64,000 nucleotides of DNA, taken from assembly GCA_023819145.1 (NCBI GenBank), contig JAMWCW010000001.1:66400-130399 (forward strand), written 5' to 3'. The position numbers and the translations under genes were made by a program. Numbering within the stretch: the first letter of the stretch is position 1; the number at the start of each line of letters is the position of its first letter. Below, in pieces: positions 287 through 18,471 of this stretch. The DNA comes from Candidatus Omnitrophota bacterium (GTDB lineage Bacteria > Omnitrophota > Gorgyraeia > DTHP01). Under the pieces are notes generated by a model. That model was not told the DNA's origin. It made no database searches and was given only the letters and a program-made list of their open reading frames with translations.

Positions 287-1210
287 GTGATGAAATTTAG
301 AAGAATGAAAATGGGGCTTGTTTTATATTTTGCTGTGGTATGGTCTTTTCTATCCGGTAGCTATCTTATCTTACCTCAAAAGAGCCAAATTATCTACGAT
401 AGGCTAAGTGCACGTAGAGTAAAAAGTGACTCTCGTTCAGATTACAATCTTACTTATTGTGCTCCTCAGTATTTTATTGATGGGATTAAAGAATTTATCC
501 CACCCTCTTATTACCCTATTGCTTGGCGGTTATATGAACATTTACGAACAGGTTATAGGGGGGAGCTGCTTTCTTCCGATTTAAGAACTGCATTTATCCA
601 ACTATTTAAGTATCATGGTATTAGGTCAATATTAGATTTGGGTTGTGGGAGGGGTAATTTTTTGTTTATGCTTCAACCTCTCGCTAAGGAAGCGGGGATA
701 GAACTGGTTGGTGTAGATTTAGAATTATCTCAAGATGTTAAAGAGAAAATGAGCAGGCTTGGTATTGAATTTTACGAGGGCGATTCCGAGGATTTAAGCG
801 AATTGGTGGGCAGGAGAAAATTTGACATTATTGTTGCGGCAGGAGTATTGGGGCAAGCTCAAATTTCTCTTTCTAAAGAAAATCTATCGCAGGCCCAAAA
901 GCAAAGCACGCATATTGCTCTTGCGGCAGTAGATGCATTAAGTAGTAATCCTTACGCAGTGTTTATTACCGCTTCAATATTCTCTTTTTTGTTTTTAGAA
1001 CGCAGTAAATTGGAAGAGATGGGTATTAGAATCGTTTATTGGAATAATGAAGAGATGAGGGTGAGAGAAGAGACGAGCTGGGATTCCATAGATGACCGCA
1101 TACGTGTTTGGTATGGGGAGAGATATTACGGGGAAGATTGTCCAAGTATTGGATTCTACAACCTATGGAACCAAAGCGCCAATGTTGCGGTTATGCAAAA
1201 ACGAAGATAG
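287..1210 (+). CDS. class I SAM-dependent methyltransferase with the N-terminal hydrophobic leader and RR motif
   Basis: Motif I is ILDLGCGRGNF, followed by VGVDLE. The start is GTG 287 or ATG 290. The leader reads GLVLYFAVVWSFLSGSYLIL, then SARRVKS with RR at nt 413-418. Confidence 0.7.
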   Translation: MMKFRRMKMGLVLYFAVVWSFLSGSYLILPQKSQIIYDRLSARRVKSDSRSDYNLTYCAPQYFIDGIKEFIPPSYYPIAWRLYEHLRTGYRGELLSSDLRTAFIQLFKYHGIRSILDLGCGRGNFLFMLQPLAKEAGIELVGVDLELSQDVKEKMSRLGIEFYEGDSEDLSELVGRRKFDIIVAAGVLGQAQISLSKENLSQAQKQSTHIALAAVDALSSNPYAVFITASIFSFLFLERSKLEEMGIRIVYWNNEEMRVREETSWDSIDDRIRVWYGERYYGEDCPSIGFYNLWNQSANVAVMQKRR

Positions 1211-1361
1211 AATCTAAAGGGAATTATTCTCTAAAAAAACATCTTAAATAGATTATGGCGTAGTTGCAGGGTTTTACTTAAAAAAAGTCTTCCCGACTAA
1301 CTGAGTTGTTGATAGTTCGTCTTTCTTAATTTTTGTTAAGATTAGAGGGGGGATTCTAACT

Positions 1362-2210
1362 TTATTTTTTGCCACGCTCGGCAAGGATTTTATCCCAGAC
1401 CTCTCTTTGATATTGAGTGAAAAGTTCGTAAAGTCTTGACTCTAAAACTTTTCTTTCCCCTTCTTCGCTCCATAGTCTATAACTTTCCGAACAGAGCTTA
1501 AAAGCAATCATTAAAAGCTCATATTTATAACCTAATACTTCTCTTAAACGCTGCTCCTCTTTTTTTAGAGATTCTTCTAATTTTTCGTAGTCAATATTTA
1601 TCGCTTCATAATCAATTAAATAACCATCCTCGCCGGTTTTAGGATTATAATTTTCTCCTTCAATCCAGTGTTTACCTACGCGTCCATCATCTGCTTGTAC
1701 TGTATCCCGCGTATAGTCTATACCCCAGCTTTTGAGCTTAGGTAAAAACGGGGGGAGGGGCCTATATTTTTCTGCTTCTCCTGTCCAGGGATTCTGTACC
1801 CATCCGGAAGGAGGAGAGTCTTCCCTTCCTTCTGCATATTGATAGATATAGCAACCATCTTGGTAAAGGGTAAGAATATAAGGGACGTTTCTTGCTGGCA
1901 CTTCTCCCGTTAAGAACCAGTATTCATTCAAAAGAGCGCAAATAAGATGAATTTTATCTCCCCCTTTTGACTTGGCAATTAACAATAAAGGAGGACTAAA
2001 TTTTACTCCTTTAAGTTCTTCTATCTCAATAAAATCAACCTGCCCAACGCGCCAATTATTTGCTGCTTCGCGTATTTCTTCGGTGGTGATAAACGAGGGA
2101 TGAGTTTTTATTCTGCGTAGAGAAGAATAAGAGAGAGGTTCTATAAAGATAAAAAGAGCGTTAAATAATAGACTAAGCAAAGATAAGAGTAATAAAATTC
2201 TTGTTCTCAT
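1362..2210 (-). CDS. hypothetical protein with the leader and RR motif
   Basis: I chose ATG 2210 because the track start at 2276 lies inside the divergent promoter. The N-terminus is MRTRILLLLSLLSLLFNALFIFIEPLSYSSLRRIKTHP, with RR at nt 2112-2117. I recognise no domain. Confidence 0.6.
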   Translation of the reverse strand: MRTRILLLLSLLSLLFNALFIFIEPLSYSSLRRIKTHPSFITTEEIREAANNWRVGQVDFIEIEELKGVKFSPPLLLIAKSKGGDKIHLICALLNEYWFLTGEVPARNVPYILTLYQDGCYIYQYAEGREDSPPSGWVQNPWTGEAEKYRPLPPFLPKLKSWGIDYTRDTVQADDGRVGKHWIEGENYNPKTGEDGYLIDYEAINIDYEKLEESLKKEEQRLREVLGYKYELLMIAFKLCSESYRLWSEEGERKVLESRLYELFTQYQREVWDKILAERGKK

Positions 2211-2226
2211 TTTTCTTCCCTGAGAA

Positions 2227-2255: not shown

Positions 2256-2262
2256 GGGACAC

Positions 2263-2399: not shown

Positions 2400-3785
2400 A
2401 TGTTATTGGTGAGGTTATTTTTGCTATTTGTTTTTGGTTTAGATGTATTATTTAATTTTTCTTCTTATTTATCTTGCCATAATTTTCTCTACGCATTACG
2501 CAGAAGTAAGCAAAGTAATATTTTTAGCTTAGGAATTGGTTCAAAGAAGACTATCGATGATTTGGGAGATATTTATGGCAAGGTTGTTTTAGTGAGGGTA
2601 GATTTTAATGTGCCTATTAAAGATGGACTTGTTTTAGACACCTATCGCTTAGAAAGAGCAAAAGAGACAATAGAAAATTTAACTAAGCGTGGTGCGAAGG
2701 TAGTTTTGATGTTTCATTTAGGCCGACCCAAAGGAAAGATTGTTCAAGAATATAGGATAGAACCGGTAATTGCTAAGTTTAGTGAAATGTTAGGCAAAGA
2801 GATTAAAATAGGTCCAGATGCCGTAGTAGGTGATGAATTAAGGGAGTTGGTTAGCAAGATGAATCCGGGGGAGGTAATTTCTTTACAGAATTTGCGTTTT
2901 CATTCCGGAGAAGAAAAACAAGATGAAGCCTTTGCGGAGGCAATTCTTAATTACACGAGGGCAGAGATTTACGTAAATGATGGGTCTGCCAATATGCACG
3001 GTAGCGACCAAGTGTCTGAAACTATCTTACCTCTCTTAATGCAGAGAAGAGGGCTTCCGACGGTTTTAGGAAAATTGGTGGTAGAAGAGTTTGGAATTCT
3101 GGAAAATTTTGTTAAGGGTGGTATAGATTTAGCCTTGTTTGGCGGTTCAAAATTTGAAAAGATTGAATCTATAAAGAATTTAGTGTCTAGTGGAAGAGTA
3201 AAAACTGTTTTTCTCTCGGGAGCAATGGCACACTTGTTCCTTAAAGCCAAAGGATTTGAATTAGGAAAGTCTAAAATTGACACAGAACTCGTGAGTGAAG
3301 CAGAAGAGATACTTGCTTTAGCCGAAAAGCGTGGCGTACGCATTGTGCTTCCTGTGGATGTGCGTTTAGATGATGGAAGTTTATTAGTTATTGCTGATAA
3401 AAAAGGAAATAAAATTGCTGATATACCGCCAGAAAGAGCCATTTGGGATATTGGAATTATTACTTTAAAAATGCTCAAAGACATGATGGAGATGATTCCT
3501 TCTTCAGGAAGAATAATTAGTAACGGCACCGCAGGATGGTTAGAAAAAGGTTTTCCTTTTGACTGGGGAACAAATGATATAAATAGAATGTTGATAAATC
3601 ATCCTGCAGAAAAATTAATTTTAGGAGGAGAAGGAGCTTTTGCTGCTTTGAATATGTTGGCTGAATATCAGGGAACACCTGAGCAGTTTAATATGACCAT
3701 TCTTACTGCAGGAGGAGCAGCACTTGCTTATCTAGCAGAAAGAGCGGATGAGCTTACGCCTTTTAATTATATTGATACGAAGTGA
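2400..3785 (+). CDS. pgk: phosphoglycerate kinase homologue with the leader and RR motif
   Basis: PGK motifs are VLVRVDFNVP and FHLGRPKG. The C-terminal motifs are divergent (LGGEGAFAA, LTAGGAALAYL). I chose ATG 2400, preceded by gaaggtg, because the track TTG 2271 lies inside the promoter. The leader is MLLVRLFLLFVFGLDVLFNF...YALRRSKQ. Confidence 0.8.
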   Translation: MLLVRLFLLFVFGLDVLFNFSSYLSCHNFLYALRRSKQSNIFSLGIGSKKTIDDLGDIYGKVVLVRVDFNVPIKDGLVLDTYRLERAKETIENLTKRGAKVVLMFHLGRPKGKIVQEYRIEPVIAKFSEMLGKEIKIGPDAVVGDELRELVSKMNPGEVISLQNLRFHSGEEKQDEAFAEAILNYTRAEIYVNDGSANMHGSDQVSETILPLLMQRRGLPTVLGKLVVEEFGILENFVKGGIDLALFGGSKFEKIESIKNLVSSGRVKTVFLSGAMAHLFLKAKGFELGKSKIDTELVSEAEEILALAEKRGVRIVLPVDVRLDDGSLLVIADKKGNKIADIPPERAIWDIGIITLKMLKDMMEMIPSSGRIISNGTAGWLEKGFPFDWGTNDINRMLINHPAEKLILGGEGAFAALNMLAEYQGTPEQFNMTILTAGGAALAYLAERADELTPFNYIDTK

Positions 3786-4187: not shown

Positions 4188-6611
4188 ATGAAAGGTTCTA
4201 AAATAAAATTTTTCTTAGTTTCTTTTTTGGTGCTTTCTTTTAGTTTTGGTTTTTCTTTTTCCGGTGATTCTTCTTTTTTATTGAGAAGACTCAGAAGTGT
4301 TCCTGTAGGTTATTTACCATCTTCAGGGATAGAAGTGGTAGATGCATTAGATGGTATGGTGAAGGTAGAGATGATTTTGCCTCAAACTTTTGAAGAGAAT
4401 CCGGCGTTAGTTCCGACATTATCGGCTTTTTTTCGTGCTTTAAGCTATAACCGCGATATAGAAATCTCAGCGATTGTATCTCCTGTTTCTGCGGAAGAGT
4501 TGGCTAGAGCCATTCAGTCAAATTATGCGTTAGGTCCGTGGAGAGGGGTTAATGTAAGTGCTGAAGGAAACACCTTAATTATAAGAGGAATGGATACAGA
4601 GGTAAGAATACCTGTTTCTACAAGTTCTACAAGATCCACCGGCGGAGCCGATGTTTCTATCTGTCTAGGAGATGTCTCCCGTGCTCCTTCGATTCTTTCC
4701 GGGAAAAGAGCGCTTTATTTTCCTGTAGGAAGCATAACAACGCAAGAAGGAATAACTGCTTTACCTGGTTCTATTGGAGAATGGGATAGTGCGGTGGTTA
4801 ATGTTTCGGAACTTACAGGTTTAGCAATAGCTTTACAAGCTCTGAGAGAAGAATTAGGAGGTTTTGGGATGGTGGGTAGAATAGATGTATTTTGTCCGGA
4901 AGGGGATATGACTATTGTGCCTTCGGCAAAAGAAGCCGATGTTTCTGATTACCTTTCTTCTTTAGGGATAACCTCCCCGGGAATGAGAGTAACTCTTCAT
5001 ACCACAAAAATATCCGGAGATATCAAAGGAGCAAGACTGGTAGGAATAGTAATTACTTTTCCCAGTAAAGTTACCAAAGAAGATTTAATAAAAATATTTG
5101 AAGCGCATCCTTTATTAGGAGTTGCTCCTGAAAAAGATTCTACTTCGGCAATGTTTACCAACCCCTATGAGACAAAACTTTTTTATCTCAATACCGGTAA
5201 GACTGTGGTAGACGAGCTAAAAGATGGTTCTACCATGATAACTCTGCGTGGTTGGGTAGGGGATTATTCTTACGCAGGAATGATGATTTCTGCCATCACT
5301 GAGGTGGGACAGCGTTTGTCGGAGTTAGGTATTCTTTCTACCCAGAAGGCAAGTGTAATCTATCCGGCAGTAGAGCATCCTAAAGTTCAAGTTCTTGCTC
5401 AACCGAAGAGAGTTATGGTCAATGGGGGAGGAGGGAGAATTGGAGTAAATATTTTGAGAAGTCTTATCGGAGATCCTAATTTTGATGTGGTGGCGGTTAA
5501 CGGAGTGCGTAGTGCCGAAGCCTTGCGTCAGGGATTACTTTATGACGAAATACTAGGTCCTACGCGGGCGGTAATAGAAACCGGCAAGCAGAAGTTATTG
5601 GACGGGAGAGAGATAGAGTTTGTGACTATAAATGGCCATAAAATATATGTGTTTAATGCCCGTGAAGATGAAGAAGTGCGTCAACTTCCGTTAGGTGATT
5701 TGGGGATTGAGTATGTTTTAGAAGCAAGTGGCAATTATACTCAAACAAAGGATTTTGAACCTTTCTTTCAAGCAGGAGCTAAATATGGCTTTATCAGCGC
5801 TCCCGCAAAAGATAAAACTACTCCAGAGATTGTTCCCGGTGTAAATCCTGAAACTTTTGTAGCGATGGCAAGAGAAGGACTATCTCAAGTGGTTTCTTTT
5901 GGTTCATGTACTACAAATAATGCTGCTCCTGCCATAAGAGCAGTGCTTGATCTTTTAGAAGCAAGAGGATTGCAAGTAGAAGAGCAATTAGAAAAAGTCA
6001 CTTTAGAGACAGTTCATGCAGTAACCCAGACCCAAGCACATCTTTTACCAATTCAAATCAGAGACCCAAATAAAGAGCCTGAGAGAGCAAGAGCAGGAGC
6101 ACTTAATATTGTAGTTTCTAGTACTGGTGCAGCTAAAGTTATTCCTAAAATCATTGAAGAAATTGACAAAATGGAGGGAATAGCTTTGCGCGTGGGCAAT
6201 CCTAATGGTTCGGAATCGCAGATTTCTTTCTATTTAGATGGTAAATCGCCCGTGACCAAGGAAGAAATAGTTGCTTATTTACAAGAAAGAGCGAGAACTG
6301 ACCTCTTTAATATTTTAAGAGTAAATACTGGAGAAAAATTAGATTCCCTAGCGATAAACGGTTCAGATATTACTTCCATTGTGGAAGCTTCAACGGTGAA
6401 AGTTACTCCTCGTTATAATGATAAAGGAGAATATGTTGGCGATATGATCGTGCTTAATACTTGGTATGATAACGAATGGAGTTATACTCAACAGTACTTA
6501 AGGGGAATTATTATGTTTACCCTATTACTGGAGAACCCTGGTTTAACCCCCGAAGAACTCTTGGTGCGTAGTGACAGATTGGGTGTACATGCCTATGCTC
6601 CTATCCCATAG
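4188..6611 (+). CDS. gap: GAPDH-like protein: leader with RR motif, an N-terminal module of about 400 aa (possibly a degenerate GAPDH catalytic-domain copy), then an intact GAPDH
   Basis: The RBS aggaggg precedes ATG 4188. The C-terminal half has NGGGGRIGVNILR (Rossmann), SCTTNNAAPA (catalytic Cys) and WYDNEWSYTQ. The leader is FFLVSFLVLSFSFGFSFSGDSSFLLRRLRS. Confidence 0.8.
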   Translation: MKGSKIKFFLVSFLVLSFSFGFSFSGDSSFLLRRLRSVPVGYLPSSGIEVVDALDGMVKVEMILPQTFEENPALVPTLSAFFRALSYNRDIEISAIVSPVSAEELARAIQSNYALGPWRGVNVSAEGNTLIIRGMDTEVRIPVSTSSTRSTGGADVSICLGDVSRAPSILSGKRALYFPVGSITTQEGITALPGSIGEWDSAVVNVSELTGLAIALQALREELGGFGMVGRIDVFCPEGDMTIVPSAKEADVSDYLSSLGITSPGMRVTLHTTKISGDIKGARLVGIVITFPSKVTKEDLIKIFEAHPLLGVAPEKDSTSAMFTNPYETKLFYLNTGKTVVDELKDGSTMITLRGWVGDYSYAGMMISAITEVGQRLSELGILSTQKASVIYPAVEHPKVQVLAQPKRVMVNGGGGRIGVNILRSLIGDPNFDVVAVNGVRSAEALRQGLLYDEILGPTRAVIETGKQKLLDGREIEFVTINGHKIYVFNAREDEEVRQLPLGDLGIEYVLEASGNYTQTKDFEPFFQAGAKYGFISAPAKDKTTPEIVPGVNPETFVAMAREGLSQVVSFGSCTTNNAAPAIRAVLDLLEARGLQVEEQLEKVTLETVHAVTQTQAHLLPIQIRDPNKEPERARAGALNIVVSSTGAAKVIPKIIEEIDKMEGIALRVGNPNGSESQISFYLDGKSPVTKEEIVAYLQERARTDLFNILRVNTGEKLDSLAINGSDITSIVEASTVKVTPRYNDKGEYVGDMIVLNTWYDNEWSYTQQYLRGIIMFTLLLENPGLTPEELLVRSDRLGVHAYAPIP

Positions 6612-6644: not shown

Positions 6645-8798
6645 ATGCGGATAAGCAATTTAGTAAGAGTTATTTTTATTTTCTTTTCTGTTCAATTTTC
6701 TCTCTTTTCTGGTGAACTCCGGAATGGAGTAATCTTAATTTCTCGTCGGGCTAAGAATCAAGAATTTTTAATAGTGTCTCCCTTTCAAAAATTACTCTCT
6801 CTTTTAGGAAACGGATTACAAACTGGTCTTAACTTTGATGAAGGGATAGAACTTTTTCGCCAGATAGAGAGATTGCGCTTGTCTGTGGAGGAAACAGAAG
6901 ATTTTTATTCTTTTATAGCGAATAATCTTGTTGATTTTTTGGTAGTTTCAGAAAGGTCAGGAATTAGAATTGACCTTCTTGATATTCGCGACCTTTTCTC
7001 GGCAGCACAGAACTATGCTTTGGGGATAAGAAGAGATGAGTTGGGATTAAATAGGGGAGGAAGGGCTCTTTTAAATAAGATGTTAAGTGTTAAAGATATA
7101 AAAATCATTGGTGAACAGCTTTTAGAAGCACTTGACTCCTCTTTTAACAATGGCAGGATTGATAAAGCTAATTACCTGAAATATAGAGAGCGTCTTGAAA
7201 TTATTACTCTGATGGCTGGACTCTGGGCAACTTCACCAGTGAGTTCTAAGAGTATGCTTAGAGCTTTAGAAGGAGGAAATACCGCCATTATGGCCGCAAA
7301 TACCCAGATGTCGGTAAGTATTCCCGGACTTATGCTTGCTTCTTTAGAATTTGGAGCTCCCCTTATGTTTGAATCGGCAATGAGTGAAGTCAACCTGCAA
7401 GACCCAAATGACCCTGCGAAAATAGCTATTGGTTATATCGGTAGAAATCCCCAGGAATTTGCGGAAGTAGTAAGATACTATGCCTTTCTTTTAGGTTACG
7501 ACCTGCCTTATGCCATTCATGCTGACCACACCACAGTAAGTAAAGATACAGCGGAGGCAATTGACTATGCTAAAAGACTTAATCAAGCACAATTATCTGC
7601 AGGATATACCTCTTTTGCTATTGATCCTTCATCTCTTCCCGCAGTGAGAGAAGATACCCAGTTAAAAACGCTCAATGCCATGGAGGTGGAAGAGTTCTTG
7701 AGGCTTGGTTTTGATGAAAGTTTAGCAAAAACTTTAGCCGCGCGAGAATTTAAAAAATTAAAAGAACTCTCTTCTATTGAAGGAATAGACGAGAGAAAGA
7801 TCAATATTCTGATGGACTATATTGAGTCACAGATTCTAGTTGCAGTTTTGAATAAAATGGGGTATGAAGATTTGATGAGCATTCCACGTATGCCTGGAAC
7901 TATTGCCCGTGCCATTGTAGAGAACGGTCCGTTTACTTCCTTGGAAGAGCTAAAAGAAATTGATGGGCTGGGTGATGATGATATTTTCTATATTGAGGGA
8001 ATAGACAATGCGGTTCTTTTGTTTGATTATTTAAAGGCTTACTTAGATTTAAAGCGGATTATTGAGATAAATATAGAATTAGCAAAATTTATTCCTGAAG
8101 AGTTTGGTTTAGAGGTGGAAGTTGGTCATATTGGAAGAGTTGATCCACTGACGGGAGAGGCGGTGATGACTACTCCTTTAGAAGCGGTAGTTTTGATTGA
8201 AGCATTACAAAGATTTGGGATAAAACCACAGCTTTTGGCGGTAAATAATGGAACAAAACACGGAATTGTCTTCATTGGGGGTAAAGAGGTTCCTACGACT
8301 GTAGATGTAAAAAGAACCGATGAAATAGCGAGCGCTATAAGACCTTTAGGAGTTTCCCTTGCTCAGCACGGAACTACTGGTACGCCTTTTGAGGTTATAA
8401 AAGATCAACTTGCGGGAAATATCCTTAAAGCCAATGTAGGAACCGAGTGGCGGAGAACTGTTTTAAGAAGCATGCCTTTGGATTTATTCTATAGAATGGT
8501 AGAGTGGACAGTGGAAGAAGAAAAAAGGAAAGCTCCAGAGAAATTTTCTGGACTTCTTCCGGTAAGAAGTTATACACGTGAACAACTGCTAAGTTCAGAG
8601 TGTCCTTACTATGCTTTAATTATTGATCCTATAAAACGGGCAATAGGAGTTTTTAGAGCTGAAATTGATAATATTTCTGGTGAGGATTTGGATTTAATTG
8701 TAGAAACAACCCGCGAAGTAGCAAGAGAGTATTTTACTGCTTTTAATGCTCTAGAGAAAGTTTGGAAGATTGTAAAGTATTTGGGTTGGGGATGGTGA
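6645..8798 (+). CDS. fba: class II fructose/ketose-bisphosphate aldolase-like protein with the leader, the RR motif and an inserted helix-hairpin-helix module
   Basis: The RBS is aggagg. Aldolase motifs are IHADHTT, GYTSFAIDPSSLP, VEVGHIG, NNGTKHG and QHGTTGTP. The insert near aa 345-455 has LKELSSIEGIDERK and LEELKEIDGLGDDD. The leader ends ILISRRAKN. Confidence 0.7.
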   Translation: MRISNLVRVIFIFFSVQFSLFSGELRNGVILISRRAKNQEFLIVSPFQKLLSLLGNGLQTGLNFDEGIELFRQIERLRLSVEETEDFYSFIANNLVDFLVVSERSGIRIDLLDIRDLFSAAQNYALGIRRDELGLNRGGRALLNKMLSVKDIKIIGEQLLEALDSSFNNGRIDKANYLKYRERLEIITLMAGLWATSPVSSKSMLRALEGGNTAIMAANTQMSVSIPGLMLASLEFGAPLMFESAMSEVNLQDPNDPAKIAIGYIGRNPQEFAEVVRYYAFLLGYDLPYAIHADHTTVSKDTAEAIDYAKRLNQAQLSAGYTSFAIDPSSLPAVREDTQLKTLNAMEVEEFLRLGFDESLAKTLAAREFKKLKELSSIEGIDERKINILMDYIESQILVAVLNKMGYEDLMSIPRMPGTIARAIVENGPFTSLEELKEIDGLGDDDIFYIEGIDNAVLLFDYLKAYLDLKRIIEINIELAKFIPEEFGLEVEVGHIGRVDPLTGEAVMTTPLEAVVLIEALQRFGIKPQLLAVNNGTKHGIVFIGGKEVPTTVDVKRTDEIASAIRPLGVSLAQHGTTGTPFEVIKDQLAGNILKANVGTEWRRTVLRSMPLDLFYRMVEWTVEEEKRKAPEKFSGLLPVRSYTREQLLSSECPYYALIIDPIKRAIGVFRAEIDNISGEDLDLIVETTREVAREYFTAFNALEKVWKIVKYLGWGW

Positions 8799-10461: not shown

Positions 10462-11253
10462 GTGCGATATTTAATAATAAGAAAAATAGTAATTATTTTA
10501 TTTTTTTTGGCTCTTTCTCAGACAATAGTATTTTCTCCGGTGTATGCTCGCAGAGTGAAGTGGTTTGGGGGTGAGTTATCACTTCTTCAAGAAAATAATT
10601 TTTTTGTAGGGCTGGAAGATAGTTTGAAAGAGTTTGTTATTAAATTCGAGGATGCCAGAGTAATAAAATCTATCTCTCAGCCAGAGCCATTAGAAGGGGA
10701 TGCCCCTTTTGATTCCGGAGAAAAGATAGTTACCTATAAAATTGAGGTTTTGACAGATAAAGGGGTTAGCAGTTTAGTAGTGAAATTGGTAAGTAGCAGA
10801 GAAGCAAAAAATTTCTTAACTGCTTCTTTAAGGGGTGTTTCTCCAGGTCCAGCGATTTTTGTAGAACAGGGGTGGGAGAACAGAAATGGCGTTAGCGAAG
10901 GTTATTTAATCTATCGGTTCTTTGAAGGAGTGAAGTTAAGCGAAATTTGTAATCAGGAACAGGCAATTGATATCCTAAAGAATAATCTTTGGATTATTGA
11001 AGAATTAGGTATTAAACTTGCGAATTTAAAGAAAGCAGGGGTAAAATATAGAGATTTTTTATATTATAATACGCTTATTGATTTAGAAAAGAGAGCTCTT
11101 GTGATTGTTGATTACGGTGATAGGCATTGCGCTGATCCCTTTATTCAGGTAAGAGATTGGTGGTTGCCTTTGATGTTCAATACTGAACCCGAGATATTAG
11201 AGAAAGTTATTAGTTTATTTGTAGAAGTTTATCAGAGAGAATTAAATAATTAA
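10462..11253 (+). CDS. protein-kinase-like fold protein (RIO/Kdo/APH-like) with the leader and RR motif
   Basis: YRDFLYYNTLI resembles the HRD..N catalytic loop and IVDYGD resembles DFG. The start is GTG with a weak RBS. The leader is IVIILFFLALSQTIVFSPVYARRVKW. Confidence 0.45.
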   Translation: MRYLIIRKIVIILFFLALSQTIVFSPVYARRVKWFGGELSLLQENNFFVGLEDSLKEFVIKFEDARVIKSISQPEPLEGDAPFDSGEKIVTYKIEVLTDKGVSSLVVKLVSSREAKNFLTASLRGVSPGPAIFVEQGWENRNGVSEGYLIYRFFEGVKLSEICNQEQAIDILKNNLWIIEELGIKLANLKKAGVKYRDFLYYNTLIDLEKRALVIVDYGDRHCADPFIQVRDWWLPLMFNTEPEILEKVISLFVEVYQRELNN

Positions 11254-11325: not shown

Positions 11326-13551
11326 ATGGGTATGAGGAAAATATTCATATTTTGTTTTATTCTCATAAAATTTGCCATCTTTTCATTTTCTTTTAATTTT
11401 TCCTCTTTAGAAATTATTGCGCATCGCAGAACTAAAATTTCTCCTTTAGTAGCAAATCATGAGTCTGTAAGGAAAGTTTTAGTAGATATTTTCTACAGAG
11501 CAGCAGGATTTCAAGGGGCTTTGCGCAGCGGAACAGCACAAGAACGGCGAGATATTTTAAACCAACCTGAGGTAAAGCGCGCTGTTTCTTTGCTCCAATA
11601 TGGTTTGAGTTTAGGAAGTACAACTTTAAGAAATCAAGTGGCTTATCTTGCTGAACGTTTAGGGATAAGCGCGAATCCCGCAGTAAATATTGGAATCTAT
11701 CAGGGAGAAGCCGAAATTTTTGATATTCTGGGAAATATCTTTATGCCTGAGGGAGATGGTTTAGTCTTTTATCAAAAAGGAACTGATAATCCCGAAACTC
11801 TTTTTAAGCCTTTTTTGGCTCGCTATGGAGCCAAAATATTTGAATTTGACCCTTACTTCGTAGAGCGCAATTCTACTCCCTCCTATTCTACAGAATTAAG
11901 CGGTTTTGAAGCGCTGATTTCTTTAGCTATTCAAGAGGGACAAAATCCGCGTTTTATCTATCTTAGCGGAAAAGGTTTAACCGAAGCGCAAGCAAGAAGA
12001 ATTTATGCTTTGGCAGAAACTTACAATCTTATAATTATTGAGGATATTACCAACGCAAACCCTACAGATTATCTACTTTCTGCAAACGATTCTCAAGGGA
12101 GAGTAATTTCCATCGGAAATTTTGACAAGTATTTAGGGGCTGCAAATCCTTTAAGTTATGCCATTGCGGGAGAAGAGATTATGCGTCTTATGGAAATTGC
12201 TATTGGCGGGATAAGTCTTCATCCCAATGCTTTTATTCAGCCGATAGTCTCGGAAATTTTAGCCCAAAACGGTATACCTTTCTCGGTAAATGTTTCCTAT
12301 AAACCCATCACTCTTTCTGAGAGTGTAAAAGCAATTCTTGCTTCAACAGGTGCAGACCAGCGCTTAAAACCCTCCATCATTAGAGAAATTCTTAAAGGGG
12401 CAGTTTCGGATATGGTGCGTATGGGAGGAGGGGTTCCTGCCGAGGAGTTCTTCCCTTATGTGGAAATTGCCCAGATTATAGAAAATATGAGCCCTGAGGA
12501 ATGGGAAAAGGTAATGGCTGGGGACCCGGCGATTAATTTAGAGTTGCGCAGTGTTTTTTGCCGGTGGCTTGAAGAAAGAGGAATAAAAGCTGACCCCCGT
12601 CAGGTTTTGGTAACCAATGGGAGCCAGCAGGGTTTGGATTTATTGGGAAGATGGGTGGGAAAAGAAGGAGTTGTTTTTGCCGAATCTCCTACCTATGTAG
12701 GAATGATTACGGGAGTTGCTCCTTACGGAGGCCTTCCTTATGGTAGAAATATTCGGCATTGGGATTTACGCACACTCACTGGATTAGAGAATTTAGAGAA
12801 AGAAATTGAAGAGAACTATCGAGGTAAAAAAATTGTTTTATATGTTACACCAAACTTTGGTAATCCTCCTTCAGGGAATATGTGGACGATTAGCGAAAGA
12901 AGGAATCTTCTGGCTTTTGCCCAGAGGATGCGCTTAAAGGGATACGATTTGCATATTGTAGAAGATGATCCTTATGGAGAACTAAATTATACTGGTCAAA
13001 GAATTGTAGATATCAAAGAGTTGGATACAAACGGAACAGTAATTTATTTCAACTCCAATTCCAAAGTCTTTTCTCCGGGAATGCGTGTGGGGTACATTGT
13101 GGCTGATGAGAAAATAATTCATGAATTTGCTTCTCTTATGGATGAAGTAGGTTCTTTTGTTCCTACACTCCCCCAACTTATTATTACTAAGTTTATCGAG
13201 ACAGGAGCGATGGATAGACATATTGAATTTTTGATTGGTGAATATTCAAAACGTGCACGGGCAATGGAAGAAGCTTTAGAGGAATTTATGCCTGAAGGTG
13301 TAACCTGGACAAAACCTGAGGGAGGGTTATTTATTACTTTAACTGTTCCCTGGGATATAGATTTTATGGCCATGCTTGAGGAGGCCAAAAATTACGCGAT
13401 TCCCTTTAACTTTGTTCCGGGTATCGCCTTTAGTGTGGATGGCTCAAGTGCTCATAAAATTCGTCTTTGCTTTTCCACAGAGTCTGAAGAAAGAATAACC
13501 TTAGGTATTAAGGCTTTTGCGGAGTTGATAAAAAAACACCTTGGCCAATAG
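11326..13551 (+). CDS. tandem class I/II PLP-dependent aminotransferase-fold protein with the leader and RR motif
   Basis: The second half has LVTNGSQQGLDLL, YVTPNFGNPPSG, IVEDDPYGEL and NSNSKVFSPGMRVGY (PLP Lys). The first half parallels it (IYQGEAEIFDIL, IIIEDIT, GNFDKYLGAANPLSY). The leader ends SSLEIIAHRRTKI. Confidence 0.75.
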   Translation: MGMRKIFIFCFILIKFAIFSFSFNFSSLEIIAHRRTKISPLVANHESVRKVLVDIFYRAAGFQGALRSGTAQERRDILNQPEVKRAVSLLQYGLSLGSTTLRNQVAYLAERLGISANPAVNIGIYQGEAEIFDILGNIFMPEGDGLVFYQKGTDNPETLFKPFLARYGAKIFEFDPYFVERNSTPSYSTELSGFEALISLAIQEGQNPRFIYLSGKGLTEAQARRIYALAETYNLIIIEDITNANPTDYLLSANDSQGRVISIGNFDKYLGAANPLSYAIAGEEIMRLMEIAIGGISLHPNAFIQPIVSEILAQNGIPFSVNVSYKPITLSESVKAILASTGADQRLKPSIIREILKGAVSDMVRMGGGVPAEEFFPYVEIAQIIENMSPEEWEKVMAGDPAINLELRSVFCRWLEERGIKADPRQVLVTNGSQQGLDLLGRWVGKEGVVFAESPTYVGMITGVAPYGGLPYGRNIRHWDLRTLTGLENLEKEIEENYRGKKIVLYVTPNFGNPPSGNMWTISERRNLLAFAQRMRLKGYDLHIVEDDPYGELNYTGQRIVDIKELDTNGTVIYFNSNSKVFSPGMRVGYIVADEKIIHEFASLMDEVGSFVPTLPQLIITKFIETGAMDRHIEFLIGEYSKRARAMEEALEEFMPEGVTWTKPEGGLFITLTVPWDIDFMAMLEEAKNYAIPFNFVPGIAFSVDGSSAHKIRLCFSTESEERITLGIKAFAELIKKHLGQ

Positions 13552-13608: not shown

Positions 13609-14769
13609 ATGAAGAAATACTTAAGAATTAGAGGGATATTTATTTTAGTAGTATTTGTAGTATTTTTATTTACGCTTTTGATTCCTGTAAAACATTCCTT
13701 GGCTTATCCCAGGAGTTATCCTTATTTAGTTTCTAATTCATTACCAGCTTTTTCCGCGCGAGGGTTTAATGAAGCGCTCTTAGCGCGAGTTTTGCGCGAG
13801 ATTATCATTATCTATAAATTCTTGGCTCAAATCGAAAGGGTTCTTAATGAAAGAGGAGAAAATGATTTTCCATCTTTAGGTAGGGTCATCGGAGACAGAC
13901 CTCAGGAGAGAGAAAATTCCCAAAATACTCCCCCCAAAAGAAGTAATTTAAGGGAAGAACCTGCGGGTAACCGTCATCTAGACCCAGAAAATCCTTCGGC
14001 AAAACTACCAGAAGGGTCATCTTCGTCACCTGCTGGTTCTCTAGGAAAGATAAAGATTGCGATTATTGATATTGACTCTAAGCACGCCGCAGAAGTAAAG
14101 GCGGTAATGGAAGAGACAATTCGGCGTAAGAATCCCGGGGCAAAAGTAGAAATTCGTACCATTATTCTTCCTGGCAAATGGCAAAGGGATGGTTCTAAAG
14201 CGGTGGCTACCAGTGATATTTTAGACGCTTTTGCAGAAGCCAAAGCTTGGGGCGCAAAGGTAATCAATATGAGTATTGGTGCACAAGGAGGTGTAGACGG
14301 TATAGTGCTTAGTGCCTTACGCGACCTTTCTGAAAGTGGCATTCTGGTAGTAGCGGCATCAGGTAATGAAGGTAGTTATGATGCTTGGGGGCAAGCTGGC
14401 CGATATGTCTTATCAGTGGGGGTAAGAGGTGCACCTTATTCCAATACCGCTGATTTATATGTCGATTGGGGAGAGCTTCCACCTGGATTAGAAGGCACAT
14501 CTTTTGCTGCTCCGATTATTGCTGCGGAAGCGGCTTTAGCCTGGTTAGAAAACCCTTCCCTTAACTTGGCAAGTTTGCCTTCTCAATTAGGTTCACGGGA
14601 CACAGTTTATGCCCGGAGTAATCCTCCGCAAAGAAGTTCGCAGGGGTTTCACACTTCGGCAATAGAGTTTGTAAGGCCACCTGTTGTTTTTTATACGCCG
14701 GTGGAAGAAATGCCTTTTTACGAACAGAGTTTTTATTCGCCTGTTGGCTGTTTTCCGTCTTTTTGGTAA
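13609..14769 (+). CDS. membrane-anchored S8 subtilisin-like serine peptidase
   Basis: Motifs are IAIIDID (Asp), SKHAAEV (putative His), VINMSIG, VVAASGNEGS (oxyanion Asn) and GTSFAAPIIAAE (Ser). The N-terminal helix is IFILVVFVVFLFTLLI. AYPRSY occupies the position where neighbouring genes have RR. Confidence 0.7.
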   Translation: MKKYLRIRGIFILVVFVVFLFTLLIPVKHSLAYPRSYPYLVSNSLPAFSARGFNEALLARVLREIIIIYKFLAQIERVLNERGENDFPSLGRVIGDRPQERENSQNTPPKRSNLREEPAGNRHLDPENPSAKLPEGSSSSPAGSLGKIKIAIIDIDSKHAAEVKAVMEETIRRKNPGAKVEIRTIILPGKWQRDGSKAVATSDILDAFAEAKAWGAKVINMSIGAQGGVDGIVLSALRDLSESGILVVAASGNEGSYDAWGQAGRYVLSVGVRGAPYSNTADLYVDWGELPPGLEGTSFAAPIIAAEAALAWLENPSLNLASLPSQLGSRDTVYARSNPPQRSSQGFHTSAIEFVRPPVVFYTPVEEMPFYEQSFYSPVGCFPSFW

Positions 14770-14876: not shown

Positions 14877-16064
14877 ATGAAAAATAGTAGAGGAAAGATT
14901 TATGTTATGTTTTTGGGTTTGTTATTTTTCTTTCTTAACTCATTATTATATTTAGACTTATCTGCGGGATGCTCTTTCCGGCGAATCAAAACTCAACCTG
15001 CCAAAGAATCTGCGCTGGTGCTTTTTTTCCACGAATTAGGTAGAGAAGATATTTTTTTAGTGGGAGGAAAAGGGGCAAATTTGGGAGAACTTTCGCATAT
15101 TGCCGGGATAAGCGTTCCCGAGGGGTTTGTAGTTACCACCACCGCTTTTCAAAAATTTTTAGATGCCAACCCTGGATTACAAGATAAAATTATCAGGATT
15201 ATAAATAGTATAGATTGGGATACCCCTTCCAGTATAAACTCTGCTGCGGAAAAGATAAAAGAAGCGGTTTTGCGTGCGAACATGCCGCGAGAGATTATTG
15301 AGATGATTAAAGCAGGTTATGGCCATTTAGAAGAGATCTCCGGAATAAAGGATGTGCCCTGTGCTGTAAGAAGTTCGGGAGTTGCTGAGGATTCTCCTAA
15401 CTTTTCTTGGGCAGGTCAATTCCGCACTGAATTAAATCAGAGGGGAATATATCAGGTTTTAGAGGCGGTTAAATTAATCTGGGCAGAGTTGTATAATCCT
15501 GATGCCCTTACCTATGGACATCAGAATGGTATCGACCCGCGCAAATTTTCTATGGGAGTGGTAATTCAGCGGATGATAAATTCAGAGAAATCAGGAGTGG
15601 CTTTTGGACTGGAGTCCGATACAGGTTTTCGTGCCAATCCCGGAGGAATGGAAGGAGTTTTTTATATTGAAGGGGTTTATGGTTTAGGTGAAGGGATGGT
15701 GCAAAATATTCAAGAACCTGATGGATTTTTGGTAGTAAAGATGCCTAATGGTGAATTTAAAATTATTGAACGCATTTTCGGTTCCAAAAGAGAACAGATA
15801 GTTTATCGGTCTGGAATGAGTGGGACAGAGAAAACTTCGGTTCCCGAAGAATGGCGTCAGAGATGGGTTTTTTCAGAAGCAGAGGTGTTAGAGATTGCTC
15901 GTGCAGTTTTTGCCTTAAATAGCCACTATAATCATCCCCAGGATGTAGAATTTGCCTGGGAAGGAGGAAAACTATACATATTACAATCACGCAATGAGAC
16001 AGTTCATGCAGATAAACCAGTAGATTTAATTGAATGGAGAAAGTTTAGAATTAACCTTAAATGA
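14877..16064 (+). CDS. PEP synthase (pyruvate, water dikinase) N-terminal ATP-grasp module as a separate polypeptide, with the leader and RR motif
   Basis: VGGKGANLGELS is the PPDK_N signature. The protein ends after the nucleotide-binding domain. The leader is VMFLGLLFFFLNSLLYLDLSAGCSFRRIKTQP. Confidence 0.75.
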   Translation: MKNSRGKIYVMFLGLLFFFLNSLLYLDLSAGCSFRRIKTQPAKESALVLFFHELGREDIFLVGGKGANLGELSHIAGISVPEGFVVTTTAFQKFLDANPGLQDKIIRIINSIDWDTPSSINSAAEKIKEAVLRANMPREIIEMIKAGYGHLEEISGIKDVPCAVRSSGVAEDSPNFSWAGQFRTELNQRGIYQVLEAVKLIWAELYNPDALTYGHQNGIDPRKFSMGVVIQRMINSEKSGVAFGLESDTGFRANPGGMEGVFYIEGVYGLGEGMVQNIQEPDGFLVVKMPNGEFKIIERIFGSKREQIVYRSGMSGTEKTSVPEEWRQRWVFSEAEVLEIARAVFALNSHYNHPQDVEFAWEGGKLYILQSRNETVHADKPVDLIEWRKFRINLK

Positions 16065-16083
16065 AAAAAGGGGGAGATAAATA

Positions 16084-18471
16084 ATGAAGTGGTTACATGT
16101 TAAAATTTTTTGGAGTATTGCCTTTTTAATTATTGCCAGCCTACTTTATGTTGATAATCTTTTTATGTTTTCTTCTTTAGATTTTATTACAAGAAGAGTA
16201 TTAACTCCTTCTTATACAGATTCTCCTTCGGTTGAGGTTCCCTCCGGTTCTCCTAAAATAATTGCCCGTGGAGAAGGGGTAGGTGCTAAAGGAGCGGGGG
16301 TAGGACGAGTGGTTATCATTGATGAAAATAGTTCCATCCCTATTCGTGAGCAGGCAATGCGTGTGCGCGAAGGAGATGTACTTGTTGCTTATCGCACCGA
16401 TCCTTCTTTGGTGGATGCCATGCGCCGAGCAGGTTTGGTGATTACTGAAATTGGAGGGAAAAATTCTCATGCTGCGATTGTCGCTAGAGAATTTAATTTA
16501 AATGCGGTTATTGGTGTGCCCAATGCTACGCGTATTTTTGCTCAAGGGCAGGTAGTTACTGTTGATGCTGAGCATGGAGTCATTTATGCTGGAGCTTTGC
16601 CGCTTGAAGAAGATAGTGTTTCCTATCGCGTGAGTGAACTTCCGTCTACGAGCCCTGTAAAGATAGGGATACTTTCCTTTGATACTGCTCGGGTGAGAGC
16701 GATGTTTCCTTTGGGTTTGTATTCTGATTTTTACGGTATAGGGCTGATGCGTGCAGAGTTTGCTTTACAAAATATTGGCATCCATCCGTTAGCAATATTG
16801 GATTTTGATAGAGGTACGCTTAGAGATGCAAGGCTACAAACAGAAATTACGCAAAAAATCAAAGGCTATGCGAGTGCGCGAGACTATTACATCTCAAAAC
16901 TTTCTTCTGCAATATTTTCCAATTCGCTTATTCTACATGAGGGGCAAAAGGTTATTTACCGCACCACTGATTTTAAAACCAACGAATATGAAGATATGTT
17001 AGGAGGGGATGTTTACGAGCATAAAGAGCCCAACCCCATGATGGGCAATCGCGGTTTACAGCGAATGATTAGTCCTGAATACCGGGAAGCATTTGATATG
17101 GAACTCGAAGCATTTTTACTTGCCTGGAAAGATAATCCGGGAAAGATTTCTATCATGGTTCCTATGGTACGCACTCCCCAAGACCTTCTGACTTTTCGTC
17201 AAATTCTTGAGGGAAAAATAAGGAGTATGGGGCTCTCGGGTATGCCTGAGGTAGTAATGATGTATGAATTGCCCGCGAATGTTTTTCAGATAGAGGAATT
17301 TATTCACGCCGGTATAAATGGTATTTCCATTGGTTCAAATGACCTGACACAATTTATTCTGGCAGTAGACAGGGACAGTGGTTTATTTAGAGAAGGAGGT
17401 AGAGAAGAATATGATGCCGTAAATAGAGCAGTATTGCGTGCTATCGGCATCGGTATAACTTCTTCTAAAGCCCGCGGTGTAAAAACAGGTATTTGTGGGC
17501 AAGCGCCATCAGACCATCCAGATGTTTATCCTGCAATTCTTACTGCTTTAGGAATAGATTCTATAAGTGTTACTCCCGATGTGTTTCATAAAGTGGTAGA
17601 AGCAGTAGCCCAAGCACAACAAAATCCTTCTTTTGGGATGAGATACCTTTCGGGTTTAGATTTATTTTTAGGCTACGATACCCAGACTAATCCCAAACGA
17701 GAATTAAAGAAGATAATTAGTTCTGATGATATACTTCGGAGTATTGGCATTCATCCTTTAGCCTTACTTGCCTTTGACCGGGGAAGTAGTTTATTGAGTG
17801 ATACGGCGATAAGTAGGCAGATTGTTTCTTTTGCCGGAGAAGAAACTGCAGAACGGGCTTACTTTGACCGTGTATATAGGGCGGTAAAGAATGCTTTACT
17901 TATGGATGGAGAGGTAGTTTATAGAACAGGAAGTTTGCTCAGTACCGATTATAAAACGCTTGTGGGAGGAGATATTTTTGAAAAAGAAGAAGCAAATCCC
18001 TTATTGGGTGCGTTTGGAATGTACCGCCTGCTCAGATATGGTTCAGAAGATGGCGCTTTGAGTATGCGTGATATTTTTAACATAGAGATGGATGCAGTTT
18101 TAAAAGCTGTGCGGGATACCGGTAAAGTTATTCATTTAGAGTTAGATATGGTGCGCACTTTTGGAGAATTACAGGAGGCAGTTTCTGTGATTAATGAGGC
18201 AATACGCCGTACAGGGATTTCTCCAGATAAGGTGAAAATTGGTCTAAATGTTTCTACTCCGGCAAATGTTCTGCTTATTTCTGATTTTATTAACCAAGGG
18301 AGATTAAGTTTTGTGAGTATCGACGAAAAAAGGTTAGCCTGTTATCTTTTGGGGGTGGATTCCTTGAGTATGGTTAGCCCCGAGGCTATTGAACGAGCCC
18401 TATATATACCTCGTCAACTGGTTTATACAGCATTAGCTCAAAAGGGAATCCCTTTAGTTAACTCCCCCTAA
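16084..18471 (+). CDS. PEP synthase phospho-His swivel domain, an intact PEP/pyruvate TIM barrel and a degenerate second barrel, with the leader and RR motif
   Basis: Motifs are GGKNSHAAIVAREFNLNAVIGV, GLMRAEF, NPMMGNRG, GSNDLTQ and CGQAPSD. Residues 545-795 repeat the barrel with lost motifs (NPLLGAFG, SIDEKRLAC). The leader ends LDFITRRVLTP. Confidence 0.8.
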   Translation: MKWLHVKIFWSIAFLIIASLLYVDNLFMFSSLDFITRRVLTPSYTDSPSVEVPSGSPKIIARGEGVGAKGAGVGRVVIIDENSSIPIREQAMRVREGDVLVAYRTDPSLVDAMRRAGLVITEIGGKNSHAAIVAREFNLNAVIGVPNATRIFAQGQVVTVDAEHGVIYAGALPLEEDSVSYRVSELPSTSPVKIGILSFDTARVRAMFPLGLYSDFYGIGLMRAEFALQNIGIHPLAILDFDRGTLRDARLQTEITQKIKGYASARDYYISKLSSAIFSNSLILHEGQKVIYRTTDFKTNEYEDMLGGDVYEHKEPNPMMGNRGLQRMISPEYREAFDMELEAFLLAWKDNPGKISIMVPMVRTPQDLLTFRQILEGKIRSMGLSGMPEVVMMYELPANVFQIEEFIHAGINGISIGSNDLTQFILAVDRDSGLFREGGREEYDAVNRAVLRAIGIGITSSKARGVKTGICGQAPSDHPDVYPAILTALGIDSISVTPDVFHKVVEAVAQAQQNPSFGMRYLSGLDLFLGYDTQTNPKRELKKIISSDDILRSIGIHPLALLAFDRGSSLLSDTAISRQIVSFAGEETAERAYFDRVYRAVKNALLMDGEVVYRTGSLLSTDYKTLVGGDIFEKEEANPLLGAFGMYRLLRYGSEDGALSMRDIFNIEMDAVLKAVRDTGKVIHLELDMVRTFGELQEAVSVINEAIRRTGISPDKVKIGLNVSTPANVLLISDFINQGRLSFVSIDEKRLACYLLGVDSLSMVSPEAIERALYIPRQLVYTALAQKGIPLVNSP

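Follow-up and report, generated by a model that had tools for sequence, protein, structure and literature searches.

A hydrophobic leader with a conserved Arg-Arg pair on enzyme homologs of Candidatus Omnitrophota

The Omnitrophota are a widespread uncultured phylum, thought to prey on or parasitize other microbes. In the 64,000-nucleotide stretch of a metagenome-assembled Candidatus Omnitrophota genome analyzed here (contig JAMWCW010000001.1, positions 66,400 to 130,399; "the window" below), an enzyme gene cluster at 287-18471 and an asparaginase-like gene farther downstream encode eleven proteins with a common type of N-terminus: one to four Lys/Arg residues, a hydrophobic core of 12-19 residues and then an Arg-Arg pair (RR), as read from the open reading frame (ORF) listing and a scan of the translations. 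Its conservation in relatives, and its likeness to leaders on glycolytic fusion proteins elsewhere in the phylum, suggest that this N-terminus may be an export leader with an added sorting or processing tag.

The enzyme cluster and its shared leader

The eleven genes with the leader are listed here with the residue number of the first or of both arginines and, in parentheses, the window positions of the RR codons.

287..1210, + strand: S-adenosylmethionine (SAM)-dependent methyltransferase homolog; RR at residues 43-44 (413-418); Pfam Methyltransf_31/12/25 from residue 114
1362..2210, - strand: 282-amino-acid (aa) protein with no Pfam family; RR from residue 32 (2112-2117), ...SYSSL-RR-IKTHP
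2400..3785, + strand: phosphoglycerate kinase (PGK) homolog; RR at residues 34-35 (2499-2504); Pfam PGK, E=1e-76, from residue 52
4188..6611, + strand: glyceraldehyde-3-phosphate dehydrogenase (GAPDH)-like protein; RR from residue 33 (4284-4289), then a degenerate N-terminal domain of ~370 aa and a GAPDH domain (Pfam Gp_dh_N, Gp_dh_C, residues 414-745); strong Shine-Dalgarno sequence
6645..8798, + strand: class II fructose-bisphosphate aldolase (FBA)-like protein; RR from residue 34 (6744-6749); inserted ComEA-type helix-hairpin-helix (HHH); Pfam F_bP_aldolase, HHH_3
8869..10407, + strand: 6-phosphofructokinase (PFK) homolog; RR from residue 31 (8959-8964), within an N-terminal extension of ~90 aa; Pfam PFK, residues 123-457
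10462..11253, + strand: 263-aa protein, GTG start; RR from residue 30 (10549-10554); weak Bud32/RIO-kinase-like match (NCBIfam Bud32, E=5e-4, far under cut-off)
11326..13551, + strand: aminotransferase homolog; RR from residue 34 (11425-11430); N-terminal half a degenerate second aminotransferase-like copy; Pfam Aminotran_1_2, residues 399-725
14877..16064, + strand: N-terminal (ATP-grasp) half of a phosphoenolpyruvate (PEP) synthase/pyruvate dikinase (PpsA) with its own leader; RR from residue 35 (14979-14984), ...SAGCSF-RR-IKTQP; Pfam PPDK_N, E=2e-91; NCBIfam PEP synthase profile positions 2-341
16084..18471, + strand: C-terminal half of PEP synthase (mobile His and PEP-binding domains) with its own leader; RR at residues 37-38 (16192-16197); Pfam PEP-utilizers, PEP-utilizers_C; NCBIfam PEP synthase profile positions 353-791
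60162..61886, + strand: asparaginase-like protein, 42 kb from the cluster; RR at residues 27-28 (60240-60245), ..DICFA-RR-IPS; Pfam Asparaginase, Asparaginase_C

The original prediction described these as eleven enzyme homologs with a hydrophobic segment and then RR at a fixed distance. All eleven N-termini were reproduced to the residue, and the claim that enzyme homology starts only after the motif agrees with Pfam and NCBIfam in every identified case. Nine of the proteins are enzyme homologs by these databases; the 1362-2210 product has no recognizable domain, and the supposed kinase at 10462 has its Bud32-like match below threshold. The position of RR is confined to a narrow range rather than fixed (residues 27-43 in the window, 20-46 in relatives). 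A strong Shine-Dalgarno sequence, expected before every leader, is clear for seven of the eleven starts (4188, 6645, 8869, 11326, 14877, 16084 and, more weakly, 2400) and absent at 287 and 10462; the exact start of the 287 gene is uncertain because of this. The NCBI annotation of the same genome calls identical starts for the GAPDH-like and FBA-like genes.

RR is not a common feature of the window proteins. Across their 19,286 residues RR dipeptides occur at the expected rate (60 observed, 62 expected), and the extended pattern RR-[VITASL]-[KRQH], found in 9/11 leaders, occurs only twice elsewhere. The chance of an RR within residues 20-46 is 0.083 per protein; it is present there in 11 of the 24 window proteins with a hydrophobic N-terminus (P about 1e-6). 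The signal-bearing or membrane proteins encoded at 23396, 30848, 31839, 49207, 50751, 53688 and 54698 lack it, as does an S8 subtilase at 13609. Ordinary signal peptides in the window include AFA/EEK and VEA/KV (slashes mark predicted cleavage), those of lipoproteins, and that of the S8 protein, with SLA/YP. That these, the lipoproteins and the membrane anchors are without RR indicates two classes of N-terminal signal in this genome, as the predicted enrichment over other signal peptides would have it.

The RR codons differ from gene to gene (CGT AGA, CGC AGA, AGA AGA, CGT CGG, CGG CGA, CGT CGA). Such synonymous variation points to a constraint on the protein rather than to a DNA signal resembling a ribosome-binding site; an internal Shine-Dalgarno-like element (AGGAGG), considered as a separate explanation, is ruled out by the use of six different codon pairs. 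Among the listed matches from Pfam and NCBIfam scans of the window proteins, none covers the leader. Polar linkers may precede RR (KDNQGNKNEGL, NGNKLGNKEILSL, ISQNSNSF), and the first few positions after it include charged or polar residues (as in RRIKTHPSFITTEE and RRVKSDSRSD).

Several of the enzymes appear catalytically intact. The catalytic Cys and His and the NAD-binding loop of the GAPDH-like protein align to PDB entry 1dbv, and the PFK motifs GGD, TIDGD and GR to 4a3s; PGK motifs are visible in translation, and HADH, KHG and QHG in the FBA-like protein can be read by eye as metal ligands. They are also divergent: scores are far under the NCBIfam equivalog cut-offs (253 against 883 for PGK), which, as sequence scores go, would fit fast-evolving paralogs. 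A word-based homolog search, which missed ordinary GAPDHs, has no bearing on the question of paralogs, and look-ups by exact sequence of the PFK, the FBA-like protein and the 282-aa protein gave no record. In a profile search of genome contigs the full GAPDH-like alignment latched on to the generic TWYDNEW motif, and the only matches were ordinary GAPDHs of other phyla; a metagenome scan with the GAPDH-like N-terminal domain gave seven loci: the family is rare. Asparaginases include a periplasmic form (type II).

Some of these proteins have unusual architectures. In the FBA-like protein one or two ComEA/PsbU-type HHH units (residues ~345-450; HHH_3, E=3e-8) interrupt the aldolase barrel; this domain is mostly known from extracytoplasmic DNA-binding proteins. 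Two neighboring genes encode the PEP synthase, the break falling where the ATP-grasp domain gives way to the mobile-His domain, and the extra C-terminal stretch of the 16084-18471 product is a second, degenerate PEP-utilizers_C match. Colinear but weak alignments relate the N-terminal halves of the GAPDH-like protein and the aminotransferase to their catalytic halves (E=0.064 and, by BLASTP, 0.017), the GAPDH-like half retaining echoes of N-terminal and WYDNEW-region motifs. On these alignments the two proteins may be tandems of a degenerate and an active copy, and maybe single-chain pseudo-dimers.

Conservation in relatives and in distant fusion proteins

Relatives were gathered by sequence similarity, not by motif. 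Leader and RR are kept in orthologs down to 39-44% identity, with neighboring residues diverging. In all there are 41 non-redundant RR leaders, spread over about ten genomes and no fewer than 17 protein families, with RR at residues 20-46 (median 33) and the consensus S/I/A/V at -2, L/F/S/C/A at -1, R, R, V/I/T/A/S, K/R/Q/H and T/S, then often Pro. All eight full-length GAPDH-like matches (44-73% identity) keep RR, as does the copy at locus L091; so do five of seven full-length FBA-like proteins (orthologs P0011, P0012, P0014 and P0016 among them), and in FBA-like orthologs P0013 and P0015 the variants ARLVRT and FRTIRTQ (R-x-[VI]-R-T) take its place. Aminotransferase orthologs keep it in L001, L003, L093 and L098, and the L001 ortholog of the 282-aa protein (1362-2210) keeps the leader, with RR-VKTP. 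Syntenic clusters (L001/L085, L003, L092-L095, L097 and L098) have RR leaders also on fructose-bisphosphatase (FBPase), further PFK, aminotransferase and PEP-utilizer proteins, a GT4 glycosyltransferase, a Methyltransf_28 protein, a leucine-rich-repeat (LRR) protein and several proteins of unassigned function. The glycosyltransferase and the LRR protein indicate that the cargo class is wider than central-metabolism enzymes. At L095 the two are neighbors, the glycosyltransferase at 1105-2505 on the - strand (..NYEL-RR-IKTFP) and the LRR protein at 2587-3294 on the + strand (..HHFIY-RR-VKG).

The leader acts as an N-terminal signal, one per polypeptide, since gene fusions keep a single leader and the split PEP synthase halves have one each. 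In the FBA-PFK fusions P0014, P0022 and L094 only the first leader is present; the PFK leader is gone at the junction, which reads GWGW-ESPYAVYITDQALL. The same deletion counts against the idea that the leader marks module boundaries or cleavage linkers in giant polyproteins, which is also unsupported by large fusions of 1,697 and 2,601 aa (below) that have no internal hydrophobic segment; the hairpins of a still larger protein (P0051, below) differ from the leader and have no tag.

Three further genes of the window accompany the tagged enzymes:

13609..14769, + strand: S8 subtilase, N-terminal segment strongly hydrophobic, RR absent; Pfam Peptidase_S8
19002..23138, + strand: 1378-aa repeat-rich protein with an ordinary signal peptide (..AYVEA/KVRTQVI); ortholog after the S8 gene in L097
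23396..29443, + strand: 2015-aa protein with a signal peptide and no RR, of the large secreted or coat type and encoded after the enzyme cluster; ortholog in L097

The S8 subtilase is the only gene inside the cluster without RR, and its orthologs beside RR-leader genes never carry it either. Its orthologs P0169 and P0170 adjoin RR-leader genes in L097 and L098, which makes three genomes with this adjacency. The motifs IIDID, KHAAE, NMSIG and GTSFAAP can be read by eye as an intact Asp/His/Asn/Ser catalytic set; the best matches among solved structures are sphericase and a cyanobactin protease PatA-like entry (E about 1e-6), remote and not kexin-like. The S8 subtilase, the large repeat proteins and a protein with fibronectin type III (fn3) domains have ordinary signal peptides.

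The 1378-aa protein has internal repeats (..ITYNEDGLQTGY..) with a period of about 280 aa. After its signal peptide it reads KVRTQVI, with RVRTQVI 36 residues further on, this second copy being loosely conserved in the L097 ortholog. Going by the letters, KVRTQ is possibly a variant of the tag, as it resembles FRTIRTQ (P0015) and TLRTQQ (P0037). Around residue 1560 the 2015-aa protein has about 14 consecutive glycines, and its long C-terminal region is acidic and coiled.

When the FBA-like family was used in an exhaustive profile search, 507 relatives emerged, many of them inside proteins of 800-7,800 aa that fuse triosephosphate isomerase (TPI), FBA, FBPase, PFK, GAPDH, PEP synthase, enolase and transaldolase. 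Of ten large proteins examined, four have a named source, which is Candidatus Omnitrophota each time. Most of the large fusions have a textbook signal peptide with an Ala-x-Ala site and, 4-10 residues later, Leu-Arg (AMA/GVVSNDHLRTKS, ATA/GVVSTFKLRNNS, AYA/SFAAKDHLRKPS); their cores are weakly hydrophobic and Ala-rich. [LF]R lies within 28 residues of the core in 14/24 signal-bearing enzyme fusions and in 1/16 ComEA-like controls. Comparison of these sequences suggests a tag shared across the phylum, a hydrophobic residue followed by Arg, of which RR would be the version particular to this clade.

One such locus, L096 (JGI Ga0209749_1000013, a 470-kb contig, 1-25094), has the end of a 30,339-aa ORF, then a 511-aa protein and then three enzyme fusions, FBA-PFK-GAPDH (1,697 aa), PEP synthase (2,601 aa) and TIM-PGK-enolase, together most of glycolysis. 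Each has one N-terminal signal peptide (AMA/GVVSNDHLR, GYA/AADNLR and AYA/GADSRLR) and no internal transmembrane segment. Enzyme families with leaders occur in L001, L003 and L092-L098 (L096 included), so that a divergent FBA-like/PFK/GAPDH/PpsA set with N-terminal signals is found beside very large Omnitrophota proteins. As the homologous set is fused, with signal and Leu-Arg, in other Omnitrophota, the window locus can be regarded as the unfused version of a phylum-wide gene set; its enzyme cluster is followed by the signal-peptide proteins of 1,378 and 2,015 aa, paralleling the giant gene beside the L096 fusions. P0051 is built differently (7,819 aa, NCBI MFC1675042.1, Candidatus Omnitrophota): between its PFK, two near-identical FBA and ClpB-like AAA+ modules, pairs of hydrophobic segments (RTLPCIAGIAILGAAAL...) recur, flanked by basic residues, and there is no tag.

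That signal-bearing glycolytic enzymes occur in Omnitrophota is partly known already. In the searchable text of West-Roberts et al. (2023; bioRxiv 10.1101/2023.11.21.568195), glycolytic domains of the giant Archaeovorins are predicted to be extracellular, S8 and C39 peptidases are associated with them, and post-translational cleavage is proposed; the corresponding text of a 2026 Omnitrophota preprint describes the same conflict between enzyme content and predicted topology. Neither searchable text mentions a conserved Arg tag. The original prediction knew of no described sorting signal with this layout, and we likewise found no family model or searchable paper that describes it; as far as searchable papers go, the motif appears to be undescribed. 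The prediction itself missed the phylum-wide hydrophobic-then-Arg form of the tag, the synteny with S8 genes and the published extracellular glycolytic domains.

The remaining window features touch the leader less directly. Just downstream of the large-protein genes lies an IS200-like Y1 transposase (29623-30276; Pfam Y1_Tnp, E=4e-8). At 44883-49025 there is, by the look of the translations, a trehalose-type sugar synthesis cluster (OtsA-like, OtsB-like and glycosyltransferase genes), none with the leader. Every 2-kb block from 1 to 64000 has positive GC skew, and with a single exception the large genes are read from the + strand; the window is probably part of one replication arm on which genes are strongly co-oriented.

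Possible functions of the leader

Signal character was judged by calculation of hydrophobicity and charge for 17 leaders. They have the basic N-terminal region and hydrophobic core of Sec signals: the N-terminal flank has a charge of +2 to +4 in 15/17, at least equal in 13/17 to the charge after the core, which is about +2 in most. The apparent free energy of core insertion is mostly 0 to +5 kcal/mol, like that of the ordinary signal peptides of the window; the full range is -3.9 to +5.4 kcal/mol, with 5/17 below zero and 1/17 in the range of true anchors (-3 to -4.5). RR is found 1-15 residues past a 19-residue segment taken around the core, at a variable distance and often after a polar linker. 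In the first ten positions of the leaders Lys outnumbers Arg (58 to 39), and the tag is always Arg, never Lys, which argues for specific recognition rather than a generic positive-inside effect. In an AlphaFold model of the GAPDH-like protein (a mediocre model, from an 8-sequence alignment) residues 4-19 form a lone helix, and the predicted local distance difference test score (pLDDT) is <50 over residues 9-53. A lipobox (L-[ASTVI]-[GAS]-C) is approached in only 1/11 window leaders (LSAG-C, in the N-terminal PEP synthase half); Cys is frequent near RR in some orthologs, outside a lipobox context.

The reading that we favor, with moderate confidence, is that the leader combines a Sec-type export signal with an Arg tag peculiar to the clade, and that this tag directs a further round of sorting or processing; of the three hypotheses first offered for the leader (Sec signal plus tag, membrane tether, cargo delivery), this is the one favored by the evidence, and the tether is a live rival. 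The first part would be a signal of the Sec/signal recognition particle (SRP) type, with one to four Lys/Arg, a core of 12-19 residues and a polar, Ser-rich stretch, delivering the nascent chain, N-terminus inside, to the cytoplasmic membrane. The second would be a linear tag 5-20 residues after the core, [S/I/A/V]-[L/F/S/C/A]-R-R-[V/I/T/A/S]-[K/R/Q/H]-[T/S], often with Pro a few residues later, set in a linker that varies, is probably disordered and precedes the folded enzyme. This arrangement is preferred because the distant fusions have Ala-x-Ala signals with the Arg tag 4-10 residues past the predicted cleavage, and because the spacing from tag to core varies and Lys never replaces Arg.

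So read, the tag would define a separate exported class, mainly divergent and apparently catalytically intact glycolytic and gluconeogenic enzymes (PFK, FBA, FBPase, GAPDH, PGK and split PEP synthase), with an aminotransferase, methyltransferases, a glycosyltransferase, an LRR protein and an asparaginase. A dedicated factor would read it after membrane insertion, leading either to release or processing or to docking or sorting to the envelope, the coat or the exterior. The likeliest reader would be the S8 subtilase encoded among the cargo genes, a candidate processing protease. The motif and its conservation, its confinement to this set of genes, the way it acts at the N-terminus and the synteny with S8 and large secreted proteins come directly from the sequences; export, cleavage, the S8 role and the final destination are what we infer, with prey or cell coat as a possible destination.

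Several points weigh against this reading. GAPDH, PGK, PFK, PEP synthase, the aminotransferase and the methyltransferases need NAD+, ATP/ADP, pyridoxal phosphate (PLP) or SAM, which are not expected in the periplasm or outside the cell; export would make metabolic sense only inside a prey cell or with supplied cofactors. Positive charges just after a signal peptide reportedly inhibit Sec export in E. coli (the "export initiation domain" of Andersson and von Heijne), so that a Sec substrate would not be expected to conserve RR plus Lys there. In the RR clade plausible signal peptidase I sites are scattered upstream of RR, and the residues at -1 (Leu/Phe) and -3 (Leu/Phe/Val) immediately before it misfit such a site. 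Finally, to judge from its sequence, the hairpins of P0051 appear to be tethers that keep its PFK and FBA modules on one, cytoplasmic, side.

A bolder version of the Sec-plus-tag reading is that the tag is a bacterial second-step export signal comparable to the PEXEL, TEXEL and RxLR motifs of eukaryotic parasites, sending most of ATP-yielding glycolysis (PFK, FBA, FBPase, GAPDH, PGK and PEP synthase, with TPI and enolase in the fused versions) out of predatory or parasitic nanobacteria, after S8 processing, to a giant-protein cell coat or into a prey cell. We put it forward tentatively and consider it more doubtful than probable.

The main rival, which we regard as less likely but worth taking seriously, is that the leader is an uncleaved membrane tether holding the enzymes on the cytoplasmic face, RR and the following Lys/Arg being a translocation block or positive-inside determinant, in a glycolytic assembly at the membrane. 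The leader would then do for single genes what hairpin tethers appear to do for enzyme modules in giant Omnitrophota proteins, such as the PFK/FBA modules of P0051 between their paired, basically flanked transmembrane hairpins. It would suit the need for cytoplasmic cofactors of enzymes whose catalytic motifs are intact (GAPDH and PFK), the charge of about +2 after the core, the known inhibition of E. coli Sec signals by basic residues and the want of a clean Ala-x-Ala site in the RR clade; some leaders also have 20-29 uncharged residues with a Pro/Gly/Asn break in the middle, so that a re-entrant hairpin is possible. The balance of charge is less favorable, as an N-terminal flank equal to or higher than the post-core region in most leaders favors N-terminus in and C-terminus out. 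Linkers such as those quoted above are far too polar for a membrane, RR stands 1-15 residues off the core, away from the membrane interface, and Lys is not found in place of the tag Arg. The weak, Ala-rich cores of the homologous fusions, with their cleavage sites, would neither anchor a protein nor serve a cytoplasmic one, and the tagged set includes an LRR protein and an asparaginase, in a cluster that encodes signal-peptide proteases and repeat proteins.

It is also conceivable, and in our view improbable, that there is no second step, RR being part of an unusual cleavage region or a neutral habit of the lineage at the mature N-terminus. Phylum-specific rules for mature N-termini are known elsewhere (the Gln rule of Bacteroidetes), and in four leaders of the window and its relatives an Ala-x-Ala-like site abuts the pair (VYA/RR, CFA/RR, LSA/RR, VEA/RR). 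However, the same genome has ordinary signal peptides without RR, so that RR marks a subset of exported proteins, one that is functionally coherent and physically clustered, and 23/41 leaders have Leu, Phe, Tyr or His at -1, residues not accepted there by signal peptidase I.

An inverted or atypical twin-arginine translocation (Tat) signal, by which the enzymes would be exported folded after recognition of RR by TatC, is very improbable. The invariant pair and the cofactor-binding, oligomeric cargo are of the usual Tat type, and a canonical TRRNFIK with a hydrophobic core at 58900, confirmed here, suggests that the organism has a Tat system. The reversed order already pointed out in the original prediction nevertheless holds in 41/41 leaders: RR comes after the core, charged residues follow it soon, and no uncharged hydrophobic stretch of 12-20 residues does. 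RR-[VI]-[KR]-[TS] is unlike S/T-RR-x-F-L-K, in the wider phylum just one Arg follows a Sec-type signal that has an Ala-x-Ala site, and among the listed NCBIfam matches, from scans of whole proteins, there is no Tat or other N-terminal signal model. That the leaders are untranslated artifacts of annotation, with true starts downstream, can be dismissed as the prediction had argued: two starts (287 and 10462) do lack Shine-Dalgarno sequences, but 7/11 open frames have them, NCBI calls the same starts for two genes, and the charged-hydrophobic layout with RR is conserved across orthologs of 39-73% identity while its codons vary synonymously.

If the tag is a sorting or processing signal, a simple rule (signal peptide, hydrophobic residue, R or RR) would list an unrecognized exported class across Omnitrophota. 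It would bear on why glycolytic domains of Omnitrophota are predicted outside the cytoplasm, the problem raised in the two recent papers cited above. The unfused genes of the window are small enough for direct testing of the tag. If instead the tether reading is right, the leader would represent a conserved way of building a membrane-bound glycolytic complex in ultra-small cells.

Comparison with known systems

The leaders resemble Sec/signal peptidase I substrates in several respects: a basic N-region, a core of 12-19 residues and a polar stretch at the extreme N-terminus, once per polypeptide, with canonical Ala-x-Ala sites in related lineages. The leaders differ in having an invariant Arg-Arg (or Leu-Arg) where Sec substrates are usually poor in basic residues, in lacking a clear -3/-1 site in the RR clade, and in a cargo of normally cytoplasmic enzymes. 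With Tat signals they share an Arg pair not replaced by Lys and a cargo of cofactor-binding enzymes; the pair precedes the core in Tat and follows it here, in another flanking consensus and with no hydrophobic stretch after it.

In layout the leaders match the PEXEL (Plasmodium, RxLxE/Q/D), TEXEL (Toxoplasma, RRLxx) and oomycete RxLR motifs, in which a signal sequence and a variable spacer are followed by a short Arg motif near the mature N-terminus. These motifs mark a subset of secreted proteins for a further step, in organisms that are parasites or predators, and TEXEL is literally RRL. Here too RR, at residues 20-46, marks only a clustered enzyme set; RRL itself occurs only in the GAPDH-like leader. 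The known systems are eukaryotic and read by aspartyl proteases of the endoplasmic reticulum (ER) or Golgi, whereas the consensus here is RR-[VI]-[KR]-[TS], in a two-membrane bacterium, with cleavage and host delivery putative. R-R-[V/I]-[K/R] also resembles the consensus types of kexin/furin (R-X-K/R-R) and SKI-1/S1P (R-X-hydrophobic-X), and a membrane-proximal S8 subtilase stands among the cargo genes in three genomes; the S8 protein here is a small, remote subtilase, and the Pro often found after Arg in the Leu-Arg lineages argues against cleavage directly after Arg.

Comparable proteins within the phylum are the giant Archaeovorins, which share FBA, FBPase and pyruvate dikinase with the set described here and for which the searchable text also lists TPI, GPI and PGM domains (West-Roberts et al., 2023; bioRxiv 10.1101/2023.11.21.568195). 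The difference is that the window has separate genes for proteins of 260-810 aa, each with its own leader.

Relocation of glycolytic enzymes is otherwise familiar from eukaryotes. Trypanosomatids move theirs into glycosomes by the peroxisomal targeting signals PTS1 and PTS2. Microsporidia secrete hexokinases into the host (PMC6460350). In both cases, as possibly here, glycolytic enzymes have gained relocating signals; these organisms are eukaryotic and their signals unrelated, and in microsporidia single enzymes are moved where here it would be most of the pathway. In bacteria, the relocation of most of glycolysis by a single common tag would be without precedent as far as we know. If the Sec-plus-tag reading is correct, the leaders would form a bacterial parallel to glycosomes, to the secreted hexokinases of microsporidia and to PEXEL-type effector export.

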